Notes under the pieces: model-generated | Told to the model about the DNA's origin: nothing | The model's database searches: none | What the model saw: only the letters and a program-made list of their open reading frames with translations | Shown: one piece after another, positions 2,073 through 13,995 of the stretch | Numbering within the stretch: position 1 is the first letter of the stretch | Layout of the letters: the number at the start of each line of letters is the position of its first letter | Virus record (IMG/VR): IMGVR_UViG_2974547928_000001 | Span: 1 to 64,000 of that record | Length of the DNA stretch: 64,000 bases | Origin: a virus | Lineage: Duplodnaviria > Caudoviricetes | Direction: 5' to 3' (one strand) | Program-made: the position numbers and the translations under genes

Positions 2073-3791
2073 TTAAAAGAATCGACCGTTAACAACGTTT
2101 AATAACATACGCTGACCATTTTTAAAGGTTACGATATGGCTCTGAGTCCATGAAGTACCGCCGATATTATAGCCCATATCTTTTAAGCCCGAAACGCCAG
2201 CCGTCCAGACGTTATCTAGGATAGACGCCGAATGAGTGTGACCTGTATTCATAGGCATAAACATTTTTGTATAGCCTTTAGCGCTACCGCGCGAGCCGTT
2301 AATTCCGTTGTGACCATGAAAGCCCATAGCAACGCCAGCAACCGTAAAATCTTCGTCAACGCTTAGATAACGAATGTTATCAATATCTAAACCGCCAATG
2401 TTATTTAACGCGTGTTCAAGTGCGTTGAACTCCTTGCCAGCCTTGAGCGCTTCGAACTTAGCTAAGTTTAAGCTATGGTAAGTAATGGCATTAGCTGGAT
2501 CATATCCCACTTTATAGTCGCGGTCTGTTAGCCAGCGCGTTAATGCTAAATCATGGTTAGATTCAACAATTACTAGCGTAGTGTCTTGGTTTTCTGCGAT
2601 TTGCTCTAATACGTTAGCAGTATCTCGCAAATCATCTTCTACGCTACGACCGCCATTTTCACGACCTAGTAACCATTGTTCAAACAAGAAATCAGGGTTA
2701 TTTCGGTTATGGTGGTTACGGCTCATAAAGTCGATTACATCATGAATACATGTATAAACAGGCTTCAATAAACGTGATAGGCTATACGGATAATCCATAT
2801 CCCAACTAATTTCTGCCACTAGAGGATCGACTTTCTCCGCGTGAATATCCCCGTATTGGATAGCCGACACTGGGCGATCTTCATCAACATTAACTAAATC
2901 AATGCTATCTGGAGTAACATAAATAACGTCGTTACCGTCAAAATCATAAAACGCCCCCGTATCATCAACCGACTGAATTTGTCTAACGTGGTGATAGCCG
3001 TCCTCGTCCATAGTAACGATTAAAGCCCCGTATGTATGGAAAGGCTCAACTTTTTGACCTGCTTTTTTACCGCGATAGTTACGTTGCGTTAGTGTACCAG
3101 TACCGAAAATTTGGCGACTATCACAACCTTTAGCAACTGGCAAGGATTCACTATCCTGTTTAACAGTACCAAAAGCACCACTTGCATTAGGTGGCAAGAT
3201 ACCGCCTAATCCCTGAATAGGGAATCTAGCGCTAGGCGTGATATTAGTTTTTGCTAGGAAACAAAACCCGTTATTACCTAAATACACGTTTTCGTTAATT
3301 AACGTAGAGCGTATTTCTTCGGGGTAGCGGTGTTCGAGTCTATCCATCTTCTTAAATTCTGTAAGCGCATAAGTAACGCTATTTGTTAGGATAGGCGCAT
3401 TAAGATAATCAGACAAGCGCTTCAATGCTAACCAGAACGGCTTATTTAAATCAGTGTTATTTTGCGCACTGGTTAATATCCAACAATTACCGTCTAGCGT
3501 TTCCCAACGTTCCCACTCATTGTTAAGAATACCGTCCGAAACTGGGCGTGTATCTTCTTTGATTGCCCTTTCTCGCTTTGTGGCAACTTTTACGGGGCGG
3601 TTTTCCTCGTACCAATCCATTAAATCGGTACTAGATATTTCTCTGCCAGTGTCTTTATGAAACGCGCTAGCCACTTGCTCACATACGCCTAACTTGCTTT
3701 CTAGGATTCGCTTTCCATAGAAATTTAAATCTTGAGCCATTTTTGCTAGGCATTCTTTATGAGCTTTAGACAGCGATTCGATTTTATACAT
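2073..3791 (-). CDS. A1: A1 protein (second-step transfer/host DNA degradation; metallophosphoesterase-like C-terminus)
   Basis: 572 aa; GDIH, ESNHD, HGH and GHTH motifs; position and length as T5 A1. Confidence 0.9.
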   Translation of the reverse strand: MYKIESLSKAHKECLAKMAQDLNFYGKRILESKLGVCEQVASAFHKDTGREISSTDLMDWYEENRPVKVATKRERAIKEDTRPVSDGILNNEWERWETLDGNCWILTSAQNNTDLNKPFWLALKRLSDYLNAPILTNSVTYALTEFKKMDRLEHRYPEEIRSTLINENVYLGNNGFCFLAKTNITPSARFPIQGLGGILPPNASGAFGTVKQDSESLPVAKGCDSRQIFGTGTLTQRNYRGKKAGQKVEPFHTYGALIVTMDEDGYHHVRQIQSVDDTGAFYDFDGNDVIYVTPDSIDLVNVDEDRPVSAIQYGDIHAEKVDPLVAEISWDMDYPYSLSRLLKPVYTCIHDVIDFMSRNHHNRNNPDFLFEQWLLGRENGGRSVEDDLRDTANVLEQIAENQDTTLVIVESNHDLALTRWLTDRDYKVGYDPANAITYHSLNLAKFEALKAGKEFNALEHALNNIGGLDIDNIRYLSVDEDFTVAGVAMGFHGHNGINGSRGSAKGYTKMFMPMNTGHTHSASILDNVWTAGVSGLKDMGYNIGGTSWTQSHIVTFKNGQRMLLNVVNGRFF

Positions 3792-4198: not shown

Positions 4199-4648
4199 TT
4201 ATTCTAAGTTATTTAATGCTTTGATAGCATCTTCATCTAAGCCGAAACCTTGCGCGATGATCATCAGGCTATCCATTTTCGCACTTTCTAATGATAACAA
4301 TGGGTTGTTAGTTGCGCTCTTAACTTCGCCCATATCTTCAACTTGTCCTAACTCCTCGATAGTTTTCGCAATAGCGAATACTACGTGAGCTTTACGAATG
4401 CTAGAGCCAGCACCAACTTTGCGTGGTGAAGATGGTTTAACGTACACTTTAGCATTAACTAACTTAGTGCGAACTGAATGAGGTGACGGATTATCAACCA
4501 ATTCACCGATGCGGGTTAAGTTATCCGTGTTATTAGCACGTAAAATCGCATCGGCTTCTGTTTCGCCGTCCTGCGGTACTAAATCAGCTTGATATGCTTC
4601 GACAACGATAGCAGTGTTTTCATCAGTCCAACCGAATTTAATAGACAT
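4199..4648 (-). CDS. A2: A2 DNA-binding protein (second-step transfer)
   Basis: KFGWTDENT, SVRTKL and PRKVGAGSSIRKAH match the T5 A2 pattern. Confidence 0.9.
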   Translation of the reverse strand: MSIKFGWTDENTAIVVEAYQADLVPQDGETEADAILRANNTDNLTRIGELVDNPSPHSVRTKLVNAKVYVKPSSPRKVGAGSSIRKAHVVFAIAKTIEELGQVEDMGEVKSATNNPLLSLESAKMDSLMIIAQGFGLDEDAIKALNNLE

Positions 4649-4888: not shown

Positions 4889-4944
4889 TTTTAAAGAGCG
4901 ATCAATCTAGAGCTTATTATAGGTGACTCAATTTTGTTTGTCAA
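4889..4944 (-). promoter_or_regulatory. Sigma70 promoter followed by boxA
   Basis: TTGACA-17-TATAAT, then CGCTCTTTAAAA. Confidence 0.8.
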
Positions 4945-5589: not shown

Positions 5590-5651
5590 TTGTTAAAGAG
5601 CGTTGTTACTTGGTACGCTTTCTATTATCCACATTCTAATTATATTGTCAA
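5590..5651 (-). promoter_or_regulatory. Sigma70 promoter plus boxA; DnaA box overlapping -10
   Basis: TTGACA-16-GATAAT; boxA 5602-5590; TTATCCACA at 5625-5633. Confidence 0.75.
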
Positions 5652-5920: not shown

Positions 5921-5936
5921 CTGTATATTTATACAG
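5921..5936. promoter_or_regulatory. LexA (SOS) box
   Basis: CTGTATATTTATACAG, perfect CTGT-N8-ACAG with AT spacer. Confidence 0.65.
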
Positions 5937-6212: not shown

Positions 6213-7406
6213 ATGACTCCGCTTGATTTAAGCAGTTTAAGAGGGGTTAGCTGGAAAACTACTATCACAAAGCTACTAGGAGATAAACCATCTCAAACTT
6301 TAAATAATGATAAAGTGTTTAGCTTTTGTAGTGATAACCCACTATACCTCGGAAATATTCCCCTTGATTCCATAACAGGGGCAAATATATCTAACAGTCA
6401 AGTAGCTAACAGTATCATTAGCGCGTTTGCTATTCAAGTTTTAGATGCAAAGAATGCTAGTGAAGCCAATGCAATTAACCCCATTGTTATCTACTCACCG
6501 CTTAATCTTCTAACATTCGATTATGATTGGCTAGAAGATATGCCGTCGAATGCTATCGGGGGCGCTAACGTTTTATTATTAGTGCCAGCTCATAGCGGTA
6601 GAAATACTTATGTATCGTACTATTGGGGCAATACAGTAAAATCCCCTAGTAAAATTAGTGACAAAGGAATTAATTTCTTTGCACTAGGCGGTTATATAGG
6701 CACGACAATTTTACAACAACTGGCGCAATTTAGCGGTAATGTAACTGGTGAGCTATCTAGCGCACTGTTTAGAGATCAGCTATCTGCAAGATGGGATAGC
6801 TTAGAATTATCTGATAGCTACCTACGTGATATAGAGTGTAGCTATTATTCAGGCGCATCTAGAGCGTGTAACGTACTGAAAGCGGAATCATTTAATGATC
6901 CCCGTGGTTTATCAGACTTGCATTCTGTGGGTGTACTATTACCAAACAATAACCTGATTTTCCCTAGCTCCGTTGATGAGAGTCTATTACAGGCAAAATC
7001 TATTCCAAATCAATCCGTTACTAAAACAGGAAATAACACAATGAAACTATCACTAGCACAAATTATCGAGCAAAACAAAGATAGCGCAATCCAAGCTGGA
7101 AAGCTAGAAGCTGGGCGCACTGTAAACCAACAATTAGGCGCTGTTATGGCTAAATCCTTGCCTTTGATGGTGCGCGGTTATGCTCAAACTGAGTTAGGGC
7201 ATTTAGTAGTTGCTAACCTTTTCTTATTAGCGGTGCAAAACTTTGCAAACGATAATAAGGTAGCTATGGCGTTAGCTGAAAGTGCTGTAAATTCAGCATC
7301 TTATGAGCTATTACGCGGTTTAGATATCCCTAAACTGATTGACGATGTTGTTAAAGGCGTGCCTAGCGCTCAACTTAGCAACCTATTAACTAAGGGAGAG
7401 GAGTAA
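6213..7406 (+). CDS. Pre-early hypothetical protein, possible internal start at 7041
   Basis: 397-aa ORF, TAAGG RBS; first gene of the rightward block. Confidence 0.8.
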   Translation: MTPLDLSSLRGVSWKTTITKLLGDKPSQTLNNDKVFSFCSDNPLYLGNIPLDSITGANISNSQVANSIISAFAIQVLDAKNASEANAINPIVIYSPLNLLTFDYDWLEDMPSNAIGGANVLLLVPAHSGRNTYVSYYWGNTVKSPSKISDKGINFFALGGYIGTTILQQLAQFSGNVTGELSSALFRDQLSARWDSLELSDSYLRDIECSYYSGASRACNVLKAESFNDPRGLSDLHSVGVLLPNNNLIFPSSVDESLLQAKSIPNQSVTKTGNNTMKLSLAQIIEQNKDSAIQAGKLEAGRTVNQQLGAVMAKSLPLMVRGYAQTELGHLVVANLFLLAVQNFANDNKVAMALAESAVNSASYELLRGLDIPKLIDDVVKGVPSAQLSNLLTKGEE

Positions 7407-7412
7407 AAAATA

Positions 7413-7808
7413 ATGGCACGGTTTACATTAGAGCGCTTTCGTGCTAAGGTAAATCGTGACGGTACGCCATTTTATTTATTGCCTCGCTTATCCCTGACGG
7501 GGCAATTATTTAGTATACTAGAGGGCTACCAGCTAGGAACTATTAAGCGTGAAGAATCCGTCACGGTGATCTATGGTCGAGCGTCTACGGTAGTTAATGA
7601 AAGTATTGTAGCGCACCTATTAGATATCATTGAGTCAATAGGCAATGAAAACGCCATCACATTTGCAACGTTTCAGGGTGAAAGTTTTCCTATTGACAGC
7701 GTTAGAGATATAGAGTATCTTTTCACTTGTGGTAACTTTGTAATCTTACAAAATGGCGCACTAGGTATAAAACTTCGCTTATGGGGCGATATAGGGGGCA
7801 ACGATTGA
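7413..7808 (+). CDS. Hypothetical protein
   Basis: 131-aa ORF, GAGGAG RBS. Confidence 0.75.
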   Translation: MARFTLERFRAKVNRDGTPFYLLPRLSLTGQLFSILEGYQLGTIKREESVTVIYGRASTVVNESIVAHLLDIIESIGNENAITFATFQGESFPIDSVRDIEYLFTCGNFVILQNGALGIKLRLWGDIGGND

Positions 7809-7984
7809 ACAACTAATAAATATATTAGTTAACTTCGCTAAGGGCACTAAGCCCACTTTGTATATAGTAACCATCTTAGGGCTTGTTATATTTTACAAGT
7901 TTATAACCTTTGACTGGTCGCAATATTGGAACTATTAAATTAAACTAGGCGCTAGAATGCGCCTAACAAAATAAGGTGTCTATT

Positions 7985-8533
7985 ATGAAAAATTTAACTA
8001 AGTTATCTTTAACTATGCCTAAATTTGCACGCTATTTATCAGTAGCAGTTAGCAACGGCATTTTATCTTTATCTGGCGCGGAACAAGTAGCCAGCCTTAT
8101 CAATCAATACCCGCAAATCGTGCCACTCAATAAAGATGGGAAAACCCAAGATTTCCCAAGTTTAGACTTTGCACTAAATTGGCGTGAGATTATGGACGTA
8201 GTAGAAAACAACCCTACGGCTATTGACCTAGACGCCTTGATTGCAAGCGTTACTGATACGGCGGTGGCTCACACCATTAAACAGCTAGAAGATGCGGTAG
8301 TAGATGCCAGCGATTGCCTGTCTAAAGAGCGTCAAGCATCTAACACGGTGCATAAAGCACCTAACGTGTTTAGCTGGCTTAACCATGTGTTTATCGCTAA
8401 CGGTTTATTTTGTGCCGATATGCTAGACTTTGAAGAAACTTTTATTTTCTGCATGGTCAGCGGTTGCGAATCCAAGTATGAGGAGAACTGCCAGCTAGAT
8501 GATGCACCTCTTTACCCTGATTTCTTCAAATAA
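7985..8533 (+). CDS. Hypothetical protein, paralog of 8619..9104
   Basis: ATG at 7985 after TAAGG; shared N-terminal motifs. Confidence 0.8.
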   Translation: MKNLTKLSLTMPKFARYLSVAVSNGILSLSGAEQVASLINQYPQIVPLNKDGKTQDFPSLDFALNWREIMDVVENNPTAIDLDALIASVTDTAVAHTIKQLEDAVVDASDCLSKERQASNTVHKAPNVFSWLNHVFIANGLFCADMLDFEETFIFCMVSGCESKYEENCQLDDAPLYPDFFK

Positions 8534-8618
8534 TAGCTTGACAGCAGTCAGTAGTTAGTAGTATATTACTCATTACGGGGCGAATAGGTCGCCCCTACCA
8601 AAATAAGGTGTCTATATT

Positions 8619-9104
8619 ATGTCTAACCCAAAATTTAACCGTTATATTTCTACCGCTGTATCTATGGGCTACTTGTCACAAGCTGGCGCGGATATCATTC
8701 TAGCATTACCAGTCGCACAAGATGCGCCAAGCATTGATTGTGCTTTCAAATTTGCTGATATTGTGGCAAGTATTGAAAGCGGTGATCTGGTTGTAGATGC
8801 TCGTGCCCTGTTTGATAGTGTTCCTCGCGATATCGTTGAACGAGCTTATAAAGCATTAGGGGAAATGGCAAGCGATAACTTATTAAAGCCATTTGATGAA
8901 ATGCTCGTAGTCGCCGAACTAAAAGAAAGCGATAGCCCCGCCCCTGTATTTGCACTACAATTTATTGATGCGGTGTTTACGGGTATCGGTCACTGGAATA
9001 TGTATTGCAAACACTTTCTAGAGGGCTTAGAGCTGTCTGATAACGGTGTAATGCCACTGTATGAAGAATCGGGCGCTGGCGAAGAGCCTATTTCTTTCCA
9101 TTAA
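8619..9104 (+). CDS. Hypothetical protein, paralog of 7985..8533
   Basis: Own TTGACA-17-TATATT promoter; shared motifs. Confidence 0.8.
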   Translation: MSNPKFNRYISTAVSMGYLSQAGADIILALPVAQDAPSIDCAFKFADIVASIESGDLVVDARALFDSVPRDIVERAYKALGEMASDNLLKPFDEMLVVAELKESDSPAPVFALQFIDAVFTGIGHWNMYCKHFLEGLELSDNGVMPLYEESGAGEEPISFH

Positions 9105-9153
9105 TAACACAATCGGCGGTAGCTTTCAAGGGCTACCGCTTTAGAGGTATCTA

Positions 9154-9513
9154 ATGAAACGTTTTTTATTTCCATTGGCGCTATGTCTATTTTCTGCTAG
9201 TGCAATGAGTGACACCAAGCCATTAAATTTAACAGTGTGTAAAGCGACTACTAGCGACAGCACGCAACTAGCCAATGTATACGGCATCAATGGCGCTTTC
9301 GTTGTTGAAACATCTTTTAAAGGTGTGTATCATAAAGATGTGTTTATAGGTGAACAATCGCCTTATGTCTTTGTTGGCAAAAACTCTATGATAGTCGCCG
9401 ACACTAAACGAGTGGACGGCTACGTTAATTTCGAGGGCGCGGAGCTTACTATCATTTCTAAAAATGGTAACACAACCCTACACCTTAAAGACTGCGCGGA
9501 GACTGTATTATGA
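9154..9513 (+). CDS. Secreted/periplasmic protein
   Basis: Sec signal MKRFLFPLALCLFSASAMS; two Cys in the mature part. Confidence 0.75.
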   Translation: MKRFLFPLALCLFSASAMSDTKPLNLTVCKATTSDSTQLANVYGINGAFVVETSFKGVYHKDVFIGEQSPYVFVGKNSMIVADTKRVDGYVNFEGAELTIISKNGNTTLHLKDCAETVL

Positions 9514-9875
9514 GACACTACCAATCATTCCAATTAGCAGTAGTTAATAACGTTGCGGAAATTTCCGCTAGTGCAGACGTTTTTGTTAACAATCCAGCTA
9601 GAGCAGTAACCATGATAGATGGGCTTCTAGACTGCGCTGAGGTAAAACCTAATCATGCACCGCTACGCATGTTAACAGCTATCAGCACCGCCCTAGAAGC
9701 TAACGAGGGCTTAGTAGAAAGTTTTGTGTATACGGTCGATTGCACTGATTATTTATACAGTGTTAAAGTGCTACCATGTGAAGCCCCATTTAATACCATC
9801 ACCATTATTATTAATGTGATGGTACACAAGCCGACTATTAAAAGCGGTGTAGTGCAAGGGGCATATTGTGCATAA
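9510..9875 (+). CDS. Hypothetical protein
   Basis: ATGA overlap with the upstream gene. Confidence 0.7.
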   Translation: MRHYQSFQLAVVNNVAEISASADVFVNNPARAVTMIDGLLDCAEVKPNHAPLRMLTAISTALEANEGLVESFVYTVDCTDYLYSVKVLPCEAPFNTITIIINVMVHKPTIKSGVVQGAYCA

Positions 9876-9944
9876 TATCCCTGATTGGGCTATCTGGGGC
9901 GTGTTTAACGCCATTGGCGTTATTGTTCTGTATGGGGTGTATTA

Positions 9945-10334
9945 ATGATTACTATCGCAAGTTTAACTATCGTATATAATGACGATACAGATCAATTCTG
10001 TATGATTAAGCGCCACAAAGACGGGGAGATAGGCTTTCCCTGTGGTAAGGTCGAGGAGTGGGAAACCATTCAAGATGGGGCTATACGCGAGCTAGAGGAA
10101 GAAACAGGAATCACCTTGCGTGATCTTCACGGCGCACCACAAGAAATAGGTCGCGCTATGATGGACGATTGTCTAGTGTTCGTCTTTGGTGTCAATACGC
10201 GGGGCAATATTAAGCTAATAGAGCGTGAAGAAGGCGTGCCATTCTGGGCTACTCCTGAAGAAATCAGGGATACGCAAGGGCGCTTTGCAGACTTCAACCG
10301 AAAGGCACTAAAAATATTTTACGATAATATGTAA
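9945..10334 (+). CDS. NUDIX hydrolase
   Basis: Nudix box GKVEEWETIQDGAIRELEEETGI. Confidence 0.9.
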   Translation: MITIASLTIVYNDDTDQFCMIKRHKDGEIGFPCGKVEEWETIQDGAIRELEEETGITLRDLHGAPQEIGRAMMDDCLVFVFGVNTRGNIKLIEREEGVPFWATPEEIRDTQGRFADFNRKALKIFYDNM

Positions 10335-10407
10335 ATGGCGCTTGCATTATGTGCTAAGTAGTGTTATCTTATAAGTATTAGGTAACACTACTAACGAGGT
10401 TTACAAT

Positions 10408-10782
10408 ATGGCTATGAGTTTACAAGTGGTTAGGGCTATCCTAGCCGATAAGTTGTCTTTAGAACAAGTGCGAGCGCTTCACGTACTCCCACAATTAGAC
10501 TTACTACGCCGTTTTATAGGCTACCATGTAAGACAGGGCAATATTTCTTTTGATGATGCTCAACGTTATCTAGGGGATAACTACCGATTGATGCTATGGG
10601 AAGTGCGTCAACTAATAGACCGTAGGGGCATTAATGCTTACATGCGTACAGGTACGCGCTCACGTCTGCTAGTGCCCTGTAAACCAGACAGCGTTATTAA
10701 CGCACTATATGCTAAGAGCATTAACGCTATGCGTGAGAAGCGCATCACTGATATAAACATCATGTTAAGTAAATGTTACTAG
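10408..10782 (+). CDS. Basic hypothetical protein
   Basis: GAGG RBS, upstream promoter-like sequence. Confidence 0.7.
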   Translation: MAMSLQVVRAILADKLSLEQVRALHVLPQLDLLRRFIGYHVRQGNISFDDAQRYLGDNYRLMLWEVRQLIDRRGINAYMRTGTRSRLLVPCKPDSVINALYAKSINAMREKRITDINIMLSKCY

Positions 10783-10793
10783 GAGCTAGAAGA

Positions 10794-11033
10794 ATGACGC
10801 GCGAAGATAGAAAAGCGCAACTATTGCGCAATGTGGACGTATTAGAGACTGTCTTAGACCGCACTGTTAACCACCCGTCACGCAATGCAGTTGATCAAAC
10901 GGCTAAGGTGCTTTGCTGTCAATATCTCATGCTAGAGATACTTGATCAGGTTAGTGAATTTCCAGAGCTTAAAGACTCAATTATGCAGGCGGTCGATATT
11001 ACCCGCAAAATGCTATACCCTAACGAATATTGA
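10794..11033 (+). CDS. Hypothetical protein (last pre-early gene)
   Basis: ATG at 10794 after AGGAG. Confidence 0.7.
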   Translation: MTREDRKAQLLRNVDVLETVLDRTVNHPSRNAVDQTAKVLCCQYLMLEILDQVSEFPELKDSIMQAVDITRKMLYPNEY

Positions 11034-11035
11034 TA

Positions 11036-11072
11036 GTAACGCCCTGTGATCATAACGGGGCGTTACTTTTTA
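11036..11072 (+). terminator. Rho-independent terminator ending the pre-early block
   Basis: GTAACGCCC...GGGCGTTAC stem followed by T run. Confidence 0.75.
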
Positions 11073-12950
11073 TTTGCCCCCGCTATTTTAACCCCTATTA
11101 AAGTATTACTCCTACCTGTAAAACCTCTCACAATGCCGTACACGCGCAAATATCCCTATACCAGAATTTAACCCTATACAGTGACCCTGTAATTATATAC
11201 AGTAGTTATAACCTGTGGGTAACTTGTTGATAACTCAAACTGAATCGTTTCAGCGTTATATAGCTAATTATATAACTGTGGATAAGTCTAATTGATAGTG
11301 TTTCTCACTACCAAGCGCGAATTAGACGCATTCAGCTAGAGTAATGATAACCGTTCGTAGGTAGCACAAAATTTGACAAATGAGAATGATTCTCAGTAAC
11401 ACTTCTTCCCTGCGCCTATGTGCGTAATCGACTTCGCTTTTTCAAAAATATTACGTGTGGACTTTTTATTCTGGGAAATCCAAAACGTGTTTTTATTTTT
11501 GCGAGAAAATTTTTCTTCCTCACCCGAAATTCGCGAAACTTGCTTCAAAGCAAATCTCGCGACAACAGGGGGAAGATTCTCAAAGCCACCAGCTGAGCTG
11601 TCTGGCTGGTGGAGAACTGACTAAGAGTGTTAATGTCAGGAATCTTTATAATCAAAATTAGTTTCGGGAATATGATTGCCTAGGTTAAATTTTATGTTGT
11701 AGAATTTATGCGTGGCTGTATTATAGGAGGGTTAAACTAGTAATTGTTAGCTAGAACTGTTTAGCTGAGGATTCGCGAAGCGGAATGGTGGTAATTAATG
11801 CTAGAGAGGCTTAGGAAGGCAGAGAATAGATTGCTGGTGGGCTTTTAGCTAAGGGTGTGTAGGAGCGAGGCTAGAGATAGCTTTGCAGGGGATTTGCAGG
11901 GATTTGCAGATATTTACGTGGGCAGGAAATTATTTGTGGGCATTATGGGGATTCTGGGAGAATTTTACAGACTTTTGCAGGCTTTAGCATTTTTAGTAGT
12001 GGGTATGTTTGTTGGGACAACAGTTGACTGATATTTGGGGTAGGGGTGGGGTTGTTTTGTAGGAACTCGCTCTTAGAGCGAAACCCCCCTGATCTATAAC
12101 CGCCCTGTGCCTAAAAAATTATTTGCAAAACACTAGGGGAAGGCTTGACAAAAATTTACGGGGGTGGCAGCCCGTCTCAAACGTGCCACCGGCAAAATGG
12201 AGACAACTTTCTTATGTCGTAATGACTATAATTATAAAATCATATAGCTACTGATGTGGGCATTTAGTTTATAGCTAGAAGCAATTTACTGCGTGTAGTA
12301 TTTATGAGATTGGTGTCTCATTTTTTAGATTGGTGTCTCATTTTGATGTCTTACACTGGGATTGTCACAAATGTGCTTTAAGCAAGACTGTGACGAATGG
12401 TGAGAATAATAGAATGGCTGGGAATAATAGAATGGTGGTAATTAAGAGTAATGGGAATGAATGGGAGTAATGCCTACTAATATTACTAGAAGGCATTAAG
12501 GGTGGGAATAGAGAGAAAAGTATCTTTTTTATTTACTATTCTAGAAGCTAACTGATATATTTAATTATCTCTAGAAATGGATTGGGAAGTTGTCTAGCGG
12601 AAAATGGGGGAGCAGTTCTGGCGAATAAAACTATGTTACCAAGTCTTTTCATTAATAAATCTTACTATTAAATAACCATCCTACCTCGTTCTTTTTCAGT
12701 AAGACTTTCCCTACGTACTTTTTCAGTAGTTACAACTTCCCCCACCATGTGTTATTGTTTGTTATACTAACTTAAAATACTTAAAACAACTTATAACTTA
12801 TACACACTGTAGTCGGTGGTGTAAAATACGCCCTGTGTGAAGCACCATTCGTCTCCTCCTCCTTAGACCCCCGTCGACGCCTGGTGTTCGTACAGCGTAC
12901 TTACACCCCCTCCAATTAAACTACATTCTTTTATAATATTCCAAATCATG
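11073..12950. other. Non-coding injection-stop-signal (iss)-like region / probable end of terminal repeat
   Basis: ~1.9 kb without credible ORFs between pre-early and early genes; DnaA boxes, direct repeats (TTTGCAG, AGATTGGTGTCTCATTTT x2, GAATAATAGAATGG x2), G-rich strand skew. Confidence 0.75.
11187..11395. promoter_or_regulatory. Cluster of host regulator sites (LexA, DnaA x3, Cra, Fur-like x2-3)
   Basis: CTGTAATTATATACAG; TGTGGGTAA, TGTTGATAA, TGTGGATAA; CTGAATCGTTTCAG; TGAGAATGATTCTCA. Confidence 0.65.
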
Positions 12951-13011
12951 GTTTAATTATAACATACTCTGAAATATTTGTCAACGAGATTTTATTTTCT
13001 AGGGTATGTAA

Positions 13012-13995
13012 TTATTCAATGTTTAAGTACTCGTCCATGATGAGTGACAGTGAATGCGAAGGAAAACTACGAGAGTTAGTACATTCTCTAGTTTCTATTT
13101 TTGGTACGTCTAGGTATACCTTTTTGCATGTGGCTTTGAATACTGGACACTGTACAGACTGTGCATCAAGGTCATTTTCTGTGGCTTGGTCTGTTGCTAT
13201 TCTGAACGCCCATTGCGAAATTGCTTCGGCAATGTGGTAAGTAGTTACTACACTTTCAAAGCCTATAGACCCCTCTAGCGGTACTTCTGAGTATTTCTTA
13301 TTAATAGGTAGAATGGAGTCTATTGGTATATTAAACTCTACTCCACTATTAGGTTTAGCTACCAGATGATCGTCTACCTTATCCGCTAGAGCGTATATAG
13401 CTGCCCATACTGCTTTTGGACATGAGGTGTCTGATGTTGCTACTGGTAACTTCTTAGCTTTAAGAATTACTTGCTTATATACTTCTGCATAGTTATCATT
13501 AGGATAGTCAACCGACGAGTATGGTGGATTAGGTTGGTCTGGCTCCCTAACAGATACCATAAACTCATTTTTGTAGTAGTATATACGATACTGCCTTTTA
13601 TAGGTATGATACTCTAGTGGAACAAATCCTTTATCTAGGTTTATGATAGAGCAAATGAATGGTGCTTCACTTTTAGGGAAGATTGTTTGCTCTAGCTTAC
13701 ATTCAATATCTTCTATAATGTTAATCTTATAGGTTTTAGCAGTTGTACCTACTGAGTCTGTTACCTTTAAGAATGCTAGTGTGTGGGCAGCTATCTGGTG
13801 TACAGATCTCTTAATTTTTCCATCCTTATCAATGGTGCGCTTAGTGAATATAAGTACTAGGGCTTTCTGCCTATCATTCATTTCTGATACTTTCATACCA
13901 TCCAGCATTTGGAACTCGTTCCAGGCTTTTTGGAATAGATGCTCATTGCCTACTACTTTTTCTCTCTGTAAAAACGATGTTATTGGTACTCTCAT
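13012..13995 (-). CDS. Early hypothetical protein
   Basis: 327-aa ORF, AGGAG RBS. Confidence 0.8.
   Translation of the reverse strand: MRVPITSFLQREKVVGNEHLFQKAWNEFQMLDGMKVSEMNDRQKALVLIFTKRTIDKDGKIKRSVHQIAAHTLAFLKVTDSVGTTAKTYKINIIEDIECKLEQTIFPKSEAPFICSIINLDKGFVPLEYHTYKRQYRIYYYKNEFMVSVREPDQPNPPYSSVDYPNDNYAEVYKQVILKAKKLPVATSDTSCPKAVWAAIYALADKVDDHLVAKPNSGVEFNIPIDSILPINKKYSEVPLEGSIGFESVVTTYHIAEAISQWAFRIATDQATENDLDAQSVQCPVFKATCKKVYLDVPKIETRECTNSRSFPSHSLSLIMDEYLNIE

Follow-up and report, generated by a model that had tools for sequence, protein, structure and literature searches.

A conserved array of LexA-type and DnaA-type motifs in the injection-stop region of a Proteus T5-like phage

The window analysed here, a stretch of 64,000 nucleotides (positions 1 to 64,000 of IMG/VR record IMGVR_UViG_2974547928_000001), belongs to a Proteus T5-like phage of the genus Novosibvirus whose genome record comprises 104,410 bp. 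Between positions 11187 and 11395 it carries a compact array of motifs resembling the binding sites of host regulators, foremost a LexA-type (SOS-box) palindrome that abuts DnaA boxes. By sequence comparison, this stretch is homologous to the core of the T5 injection stop signal (IRD'-spacer-IRC') together with the first repeats downstream of that core, and is its Novosibvirus version. The element is real and conserved: its homology to T5, its anatomy, its conservation, the rarity of its motifs in the genome, and the host proteins or operators that match them can be read off directly. From these observations, we infer a mechanism in which the array would act as a landing pad for resident host DNA-binding proteins at the injection stop, an account to which we give slightly better than an even chance of being correct.

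The stop that T5 makes after about 8% of its DNA has been injected has been an unsolved problem since the 1960s. An SOS-box-type palindrome, with arms unchanged from Proteus phages to Vibrio and Aeromonas phages, names a second, easily tested candidate host protein for it. The first is DnaA, the only host factor proposed for the T5 stop in the literature covered (Davison, bioRxiv 10.1101/866236).

The genomic setting is that of T5. For positions 10700-13100, the nearest database relatives are eight Proteus phage records with 80-90% identity, and the five relatives that were opened are classed in the Demerecviridae, genus Novosibvirus. The left 11 kb encodes, on the minus strand, homologues of T5 pre-early proteins, including a deoxynucleotidase-like protein (dmp; 205-924), A1 (2073-3791; phrog_1745, E 3.6e-184), and A2 (4199-4648; phrog_1725). 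The rightward pre-early operon (6213-11033, plus strand) is closed by a terminator hairpin at 11035-11067 on the same strand (13 pairs, 7 of them G-C, followed by the T run TTTTTATTTGC), and the motif array begins 120 bp past this terminator. The array thus lies in non-coding DNA that follows this operon, dmp, A1, and A2 being encoded upstream of it; the region occurs in one copy in the genome record. Comparison with the five relatives leaves 11068-13011 without a conserved gene. Small open reading frames between 11393 and 12496 were considered as genes and rejected, each showing an internal stop, a split, or a partial match in at least one of the five; those between 11393 and 11661 are stopped or split in at least one relative, and VTCCBPA139 disrupts every one of them. 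An initial annotation of the window, made from the sequence, had described a T5-type injection-stop region directly behind the last pre-early terminator with no gene downstream to be regulated, and each of these points held.

In T5 (NC_005859), the injection stop signal is annotated at 9140-10149, within the left terminal repeat. There, a 16-base CTGT-N8-ACAG palindrome is followed by TAGGATAACC, a pair of DnaA-type boxes, a spacer of about 40 bases, a second box pair, AGTGTTTCTCACT, repeats based on AAATGAGAATCATT, and finally GTGCAAATCCGAC or GTGCGAATCCGAC repeats. The parts found in the Proteus phage window follow the same order, and the two regions align over IRD', spacer, and IRC'. They also share their position after the rightward pre-early operon, the Fur-like and GTGCG..CGAC-type repeats that come after AGTGTTTCTCACT, and the property that the non-coding DNA is better conserved than the adjoining genes. 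They differ in the spacing of the DnaA boxes (pairs are 3 bp apart in the T5-type core, whereas the first pair here has a 2-bp gap), in the second pair, of which one good box is present here and the fourth box of the series is degenerate, and in the spacer, where enteric phages carry TTGTCAAG and the Proteus phage carries a Cra-type palindrome.

In 1987, Heusterspreute et al. reportedly dealt with the T5 injection stop signal, a study known to us through Davison's citation. Davison describes the T5 element (Repeat Region 3) as IRD'-spacer-IRC' with DnaA boxes, lists its palindromes by letter, proposes membrane-bound DnaA as the stop, and mentions some phages without IRC and IRD (bioRxiv 10.1101/866236). 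The statement in the initial annotation that DnaA boxes were known from the T5 region is confirmed by that preprint, and its complementary statement, that LexA, Cra, and Fur sites are not known from there, also stands for the literature covered. A word search of the preprint's main text found neither LexA nor Cra nor FruR, and ‘fur’ only within other words; of the T5-related papers listed by a literature search, none contains ‘LexA box’ or ‘SOS box’. One paper combining LexA and phage T5 (PMC12345140) was set aside, as it concerns a protein with a kinase and a shutoff domain and its LexA passages are unrelated to the T5 injection-stop region. DnaA boxes are, then, already published for T5-like phages; the likeness to a LexA site is not named in the literature searched.

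All motifs named by the initial annotation are present at their positions. The LexA-type palindrome CTGTAATTATATACAG (11187-11202) is the counterpart of T5 palindrome D beside IRD', and all 16 of its columns are invariant in the six Novosibvirus phages compared. A DnaA box on the minus strand, TGTGGGTAA (11214-11222), departs by one mismatch from the consensus, which reads TTATCCACA on the opposite strand; in four of the five relatives this box is perfect (TGTGGATAA). After a gap of 2 bp comes a second minus-strand box, TGTTGATAA (11225-11233; TTATCAACA on the other strand), a variant named DnaA* by Davison (bioRxiv 10.1101/866236). The spacer holds the Cra/FruR-type palindrome CTGAATCGTTTCAG (11240-11253) and an AT-rich imperfect palindrome, TTATATAGCTAATTATATAA (11256-11275), which is a member of direct repeat family D3. 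Beyond it, a perfect minus-strand DnaA box, TGTGGATAA, occupies 11277-11285, and what follows ‘gtc’, where a fourth box would be expected, is a degenerate form (TAATTGATA). The plus-strand IRC' end AGTGTTTCTCACT (11297-11309), which aligns with T5, DT57C, one arm of the Klebsiella phage Spivey, and Ob_P, completes the core.

Elsewhere in this genome such motifs are rare. In 104,410 bp, the strict palindrome CTGT-N8-ACAG occurs three times (5921, 11187, and 66977), one of them in the array; the perfect DnaA box occurs twice (5625 and 11277), again with one in the array; and the Cra core TGAA-N-CG-N-TTCA occurs once, as the array copy. DnaA boxes with at most one mismatch number 48, and three of these lie in the array, within 72 bp. 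Matches to the Fur 7-1-7 pattern number three with at most two mismatches (one in the array) and 16 with at most three (two in the array). On these genome counts, the numbers of sites expected in 209 bp are 0.006 (LexA-type), 0.096 (DnaA-type), 0.002 (Cra-type), and 0.006 (Fur-type), and the Poisson probability of at least three DnaA-type sites in 209 bp is about 1e-4.

The element is also conserved within the genus. In an alignment of six phages (the window and the five relatives), 111 of the 121 columns of the module at 11187-11307 are invariant, compared with 65 of 92 in the flank at 11068-11159 and 40 of 73 in the flank at 11308-11380. Scored in bins of 100 bp, conservation of the non-coding DNA peaks at 11130-11630 and 12030-12230 (identity 0.91-0.97), whereas the neighbouring protein encoded at 9510-9875 is only 64-73% identical. 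The block is constrained as a whole, and the genus by itself cannot tell which of its parts matter.

The comparison was extended to the wider family. A protein alignment of A1 yielded 71 loci on 58 viral contigs (1,192,375 bases), on which the strict palindrome occurs 91 times; 80 of these sites lie at most 45 bp from a box that departs from TTATCCACA at no more than one base. Modules upstream of A1 are present at least once in 38 of the 42 contigs of at least 85 kb, and twice in 21 of them; for two of the four large contigs lacking one, just 2756 and 4138 bases upstream of A1 were examined. Among the smaller contigs, one of 16 has a module. The strict count misses decayed copies, such as the second arm of DT57C, in which one arm of the palindrome reads CTGG. 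When eight modules from phages of six host genera (Proteus, Escherichia [T5 and DT57C], Klebsiella, Obesumbacterium, Vibrio, and Aeromonas) are aligned, invariance is seen at 25 of 161 window positions. The palindrome accounts for ten, through CTGT and ATACAG (10 of its 16 positions); five lie in the core of the second DnaA box, and most of those outside the palindrome fall in DnaA boxes; the spacer shows no conservation. As the modules were picked by the strict palindrome, the invariance of its arms is partly built in, and it is the survey figures that carry weight.

The palindrome has the form of a host SOS operator, CTGT-N8-ACAG with an AT-rich middle, and in Proteus mirabilis ATCC 29906 two like boxes, CTGTATATACTCACAG and CTGTATAAACAAACAG, lie directly upstream of lexA. 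It differs from such operators in that it overlaps no recognizable promoter and has no gene to repress, and LexA binding to it is putative.

A second LexA-type palindrome, CTGTATATTTATACAG (5921-5936), lies in the divergent pre-early intergenic region, accompanied by part of the outer arm sequence. In PM135, the counterpart has both arms intact and a changed middle. With its palindrome kept and its DnaA boxes absent, this partner arm of the Proteus phage resembles the ‘Type 4’ phages of Davison. The palindrome, in other words, survives where the DnaA boxes do not.

Under the landing-pad account, host proteins already present when phage DNA enters the cell would load onto the incoming stretch. 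DnaA would occupy the paired boxes, as published work already proposes; the palindrome abutting them would be bound by a LexA dimer; Fur would, less certainly, bind the TGAGAA-N3-TTCTCA unit; and Cra might, in Novosibvirus, occupy the spacer palindrome. The protein-DNA complex formed in this way would sit on the stretch that comes in last during the first step, and would help to hold or insulate that DNA end until A1 and A2 restart transfer. By a classical observation, the T5 pause is reported to need no phage protein synthesis, which would fit a complex made of host proteins. Known clusters of DnaA boxes on the chromosome, such as oriC and datA, act without being promoters, and, like the phage array, they consist of closely spaced boxes among sites of other DNA-binding proteins. 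Unlike them, the phage stretch holds nothing to suggest a replication start; the T5 origins are central (Davison, bioRxiv 10.1101/866236).

Several points weigh against this account. The sites for DnaA, LexA, Fur, and Cra are putative on this DNA, and the model offers no explanation of how further DNA could be kept out by proteins bound to the part that has already entered. Within the module, the columns of the named motifs are no better conserved than those between them (68 of 72 versus 43 of 49 invariant). No promoter-like site overlaps the 11187 palindrome, and for this reason the palindrome is not an ordinary operator. There is no DnaA-like box within 170 bp of the palindrome at 5921, and because that palindrome has lost its boxes, a joint DnaA-LexA complex cannot be obligatory. 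In the family survey, two contigs without a module (150 kb and 128 kb, with A1 identities of 37% and 31%) lack it despite a full 10 kb upstream, and the surveyed sites are not independent, given the common ancestry of the phages and the fact that certain loci represent both terminal repeats of a single genome. The Cra-type site is limited to Novosibvirus and absent from the modules of other genera, T5 has many Fur-like units where this genus has one or two, and position 11389, the ninth base of the palindrome at 11381, is C in all five relatives, which gives a poorer Fur match.

These last points bear on a narrower alternative, that the Cra-type and Fur-type matches are chance look-alikes in a conserved AT-rich element with other real ligands; we regard this as having not quite an even chance of being right. 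The initial annotation was free to choose among many regulators, which speaks in favour of this alternative. For Cra, the evidence divides. The motif is given as ctgaAtCGaTtcag, and also as gcTGAAtCGaTTCAgc, in PMC5888115, and ACTGAATCGTTTCAGC in the window matches it at each upper-case position; its TGAA, CG, and TTCA take up all the high-information positions of the Cra operators of Enterobacterales. The core is the sole one in 104,410 bp; over 38 T5-like contigs (632,791 bases), a perfect core turns up once, in the copy carried by PM135. A full-length Cra homologue was found in seven named Proteus species; the P. mirabilis protein is 83% identical to that of Escherichia coli, with the first 105 aligned residues identical. 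Searches of the literature for Cra in Proteus brought up no informative paper. Given this identity of the DNA-binding region, a Proteus host could read the site. The phage site differs from the enterobacterial operators in lying outside carbon-metabolism promoters and in occurring in one phage genus only. This genus restriction, conservation no better than that of the surroundings, and the missing promoter context speak for a chance resemblance. The Cra palindrome of the initial annotation is accordingly upheld as a very good match, unique in the 104-kb genome, and is restricted in its reach to Novosibvirus; that Cra would bind it in vitro seems to us conceivable, and somewhat more doubtful than probable.

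The Fur-like sites fare differently from one another. What had been called a Fur box at 11293-11307 (TGATAGTGTTTCTCA) is a different conserved element, namely the IRC' end AGTGTTTCTCACT common to T5, DT57C, and one of the two arms of Spivey, and carried with one change by Ob_P; the earlier reading of it is not supported. An 8-bp perfect inverted repeat, GTCTAATT at 11286-11293 and AATTAGAC at 11321-11328, flanks the AGTGTTTCTCACT block. The weak site near 11345 belongs to a variable plus-strand repeat unit of about 43-46 bp (11317-11362), which is present in a single copy here, in about two copies in PM135, and in three copies each in Phage 1 and PL1; its core, ..AATGATAACC.TTCG.., resembles the AATGATAATGATTCGCA units of DT57C. 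At 11381-11395, the palindrome TGAGAATGATTCTCA is indeed present and belongs to a Fur-like repeat found family-wide in T5-type injection-stop regions, but as a Fur site it is weakened, with two mismatches here and three in the five relatives, and its perfect 7-1-7 symmetry is a private change of the window phage because all five relatives have C at 11389.

Across the family, Fur-like sites gather around the modules. In the 38 contigs, 98 of 159 sites with at most two mismatches lie within 500 bp of modules, a portion amounting to 9.3% of the bases in which 14.8 would be expected (a 6.6-fold enrichment); at one mismatch, 24 of 57 sites lie there, where 5.3 would be expected. The related units of Vibrio and Aeromonas phages are nearly perfect, at most one mismatch from 7-1-7. 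All that Novosibvirus keeps is the TGAGAA-N3-TTCTCA unit together with the weak one inside the variable repeat; a Fur array, if it is important for T5, would thus be largely dispensable in this genus. The Proteus-phage version can be viewed as a natural experiment that ranks the parts by dispensability: the LexA-type site and three DnaA boxes have been kept, the Fur-like array has nearly been lost, the DnaA boxes of the partner arm have been lost, and a Cra-type site has been gained.

A broader alternative is that phage proteins (an A2 dimer, a palindrome-cutting A1-A2 nuclease, or terminase) are what binds or cuts at the palindromes and repeats, whose likeness to host operators would then be incidental or a form of mimicry. 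Second-step transfer depends on both A1 and A2, the latter binds DNA as a dimer, and an A1-A2 nuclease has been proposed to cut at a palindrome (Davison, bioRxiv 10.1101/866236). The structural model of A2 (mean pLDDT 78.7) contains, at residues 1-72, a confident helical domain like those of Myb, homeodomain, and GcrA proteins (best Z 6.2, rmsd 1.9 over 49 residues), and a position inside the terminal repeat, if that is where the array lies, would place its sequences close to the right genome end as well. These structural matches are, however, weak (Z under 8) and silent on the target sequence; for A2, a local copy of Pfam contained no family, sequence search gave no relative of solved structure, and Foldseek returned nothing with E of 0.001 or lower. 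Furthermore, A2 is only 24-44% identical across phages in which the arms of the palindrome stay fixed through six host genera, a pattern more readily explained by a host protein that stays the same than by a phage protein that co-evolves. The palindrome is, moreover, of the box type upstream of the host lexA, and the adjoining boxes match the host DnaA consensus. We therefore consider phage-protein sites an unlikely explanation, albeit one to be kept in view.

Less likely again, in our judgement, is a role in transcription, with LexA, DnaA, and Fur as roadblocks backing up the terminator, or with the sites controlling unannotated transcripts of the non-coding region. Such a role would suit an array beginning so shortly after the terminator, as well as the arrangement in T5, in which the two palindromes occupy the inner ends of the repeat arms bracketing the rightward operon. 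Promoter-like sequences do occur nearby. On the minus strand, a sigma-70 promoter with a perfect consensus (12984-12956; TTGACA, 17 bp, TG-TATAAT), just past the stop of the gene at 13012-13995, points into the non-coding region, and both of its hexamers are intact in all five relatives; at 5624-5651, the perfect DnaA box (5625-5633) overlaps the -10 element of a promoter-like site (11 of 12 positions, minus strand) that faces the A2 and A1 operon. Within the array the picture is different: no promoter-like site overlaps 11187-11395, and an Rfam scan of 10500-13500 with E up to 1 returned zero matches.

The remaining proposals start, like the landing-pad account, from host proteins bound to the array. 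In one, which elaborates the checkpoint idea of the initial annotation, a composite clamp of DnaA, LexA, and Fur, joined by Cra in Proteus phages, would sit on the last-entered first-step DNA, would itself make the pause and would be read against the state of the host, with DNA damage sensed through LexA cleavage, iron through Fur, and carbon flux through Cra; we think this improbable. The weakest of the three ideas in the initial annotation (anchor, checkpoint, and decoy) is the last, in which titration of host repressors by the sites would derepress the SOS, iron, and carbon regulons. Tight binding at near-consensus sites and a rise in their number with replication would favour it, but the first-step DNA brings in only one or two sites for each regulator, and T5 pre-early functions degrade host DNA early (Davison, bioRxiv 10.1101/866236), leaving little to derepress; we give it hardly any credence.

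Some further features of the window complete the description. Directly after the palindrome at 11381-11395, a nearly invariant plus-strand block spans 11396-11470 (72 of 75 columns), and within it GTGCGTAATCGAC (11420-11432) resembles the GTGCGAATCCGAC repeats of T5. Further along, GGATTTGCAG repeats are present at 11883-11990 as four copies in two pairs; they share the core TGCAAATCC with the T5 GTGCAAATCCGAC repeats, on the opposite strand. At 12175-12158, a terminator-like hairpin stands on the same strand as the promoter at 12984, and the two may delimit a transcript of about 0.8 kb that lacks annotation.

Upstream of the array, 9945-11033 holds three genes that are absent from RP7 and PM135, in which similarity begins at about 11029. 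They encode a Nudix-like protein of 129 amino acids and two proteins of unknown function (124 and 86 amino acids), and form an accessory insertion immediately before the terminator. Inside the first gene, at 327-457, the Logan contig of the probable source run breaks and rejoins, with several short variants of low depth, the kind of assembly-graph pattern that a collapsed terminal repeat or strain variation would leave. Depth along the Logan contigs is flat, and a raw-read run from the same study contains none of this phage. Lastly, TATAACCGCCCTGT at 12095-12108 is also found in T5 just past the end of the left terminal repeat (about 4912-4925 of the T5 locus), and could help to place the terminal-repeat boundary in the Proteus phage.

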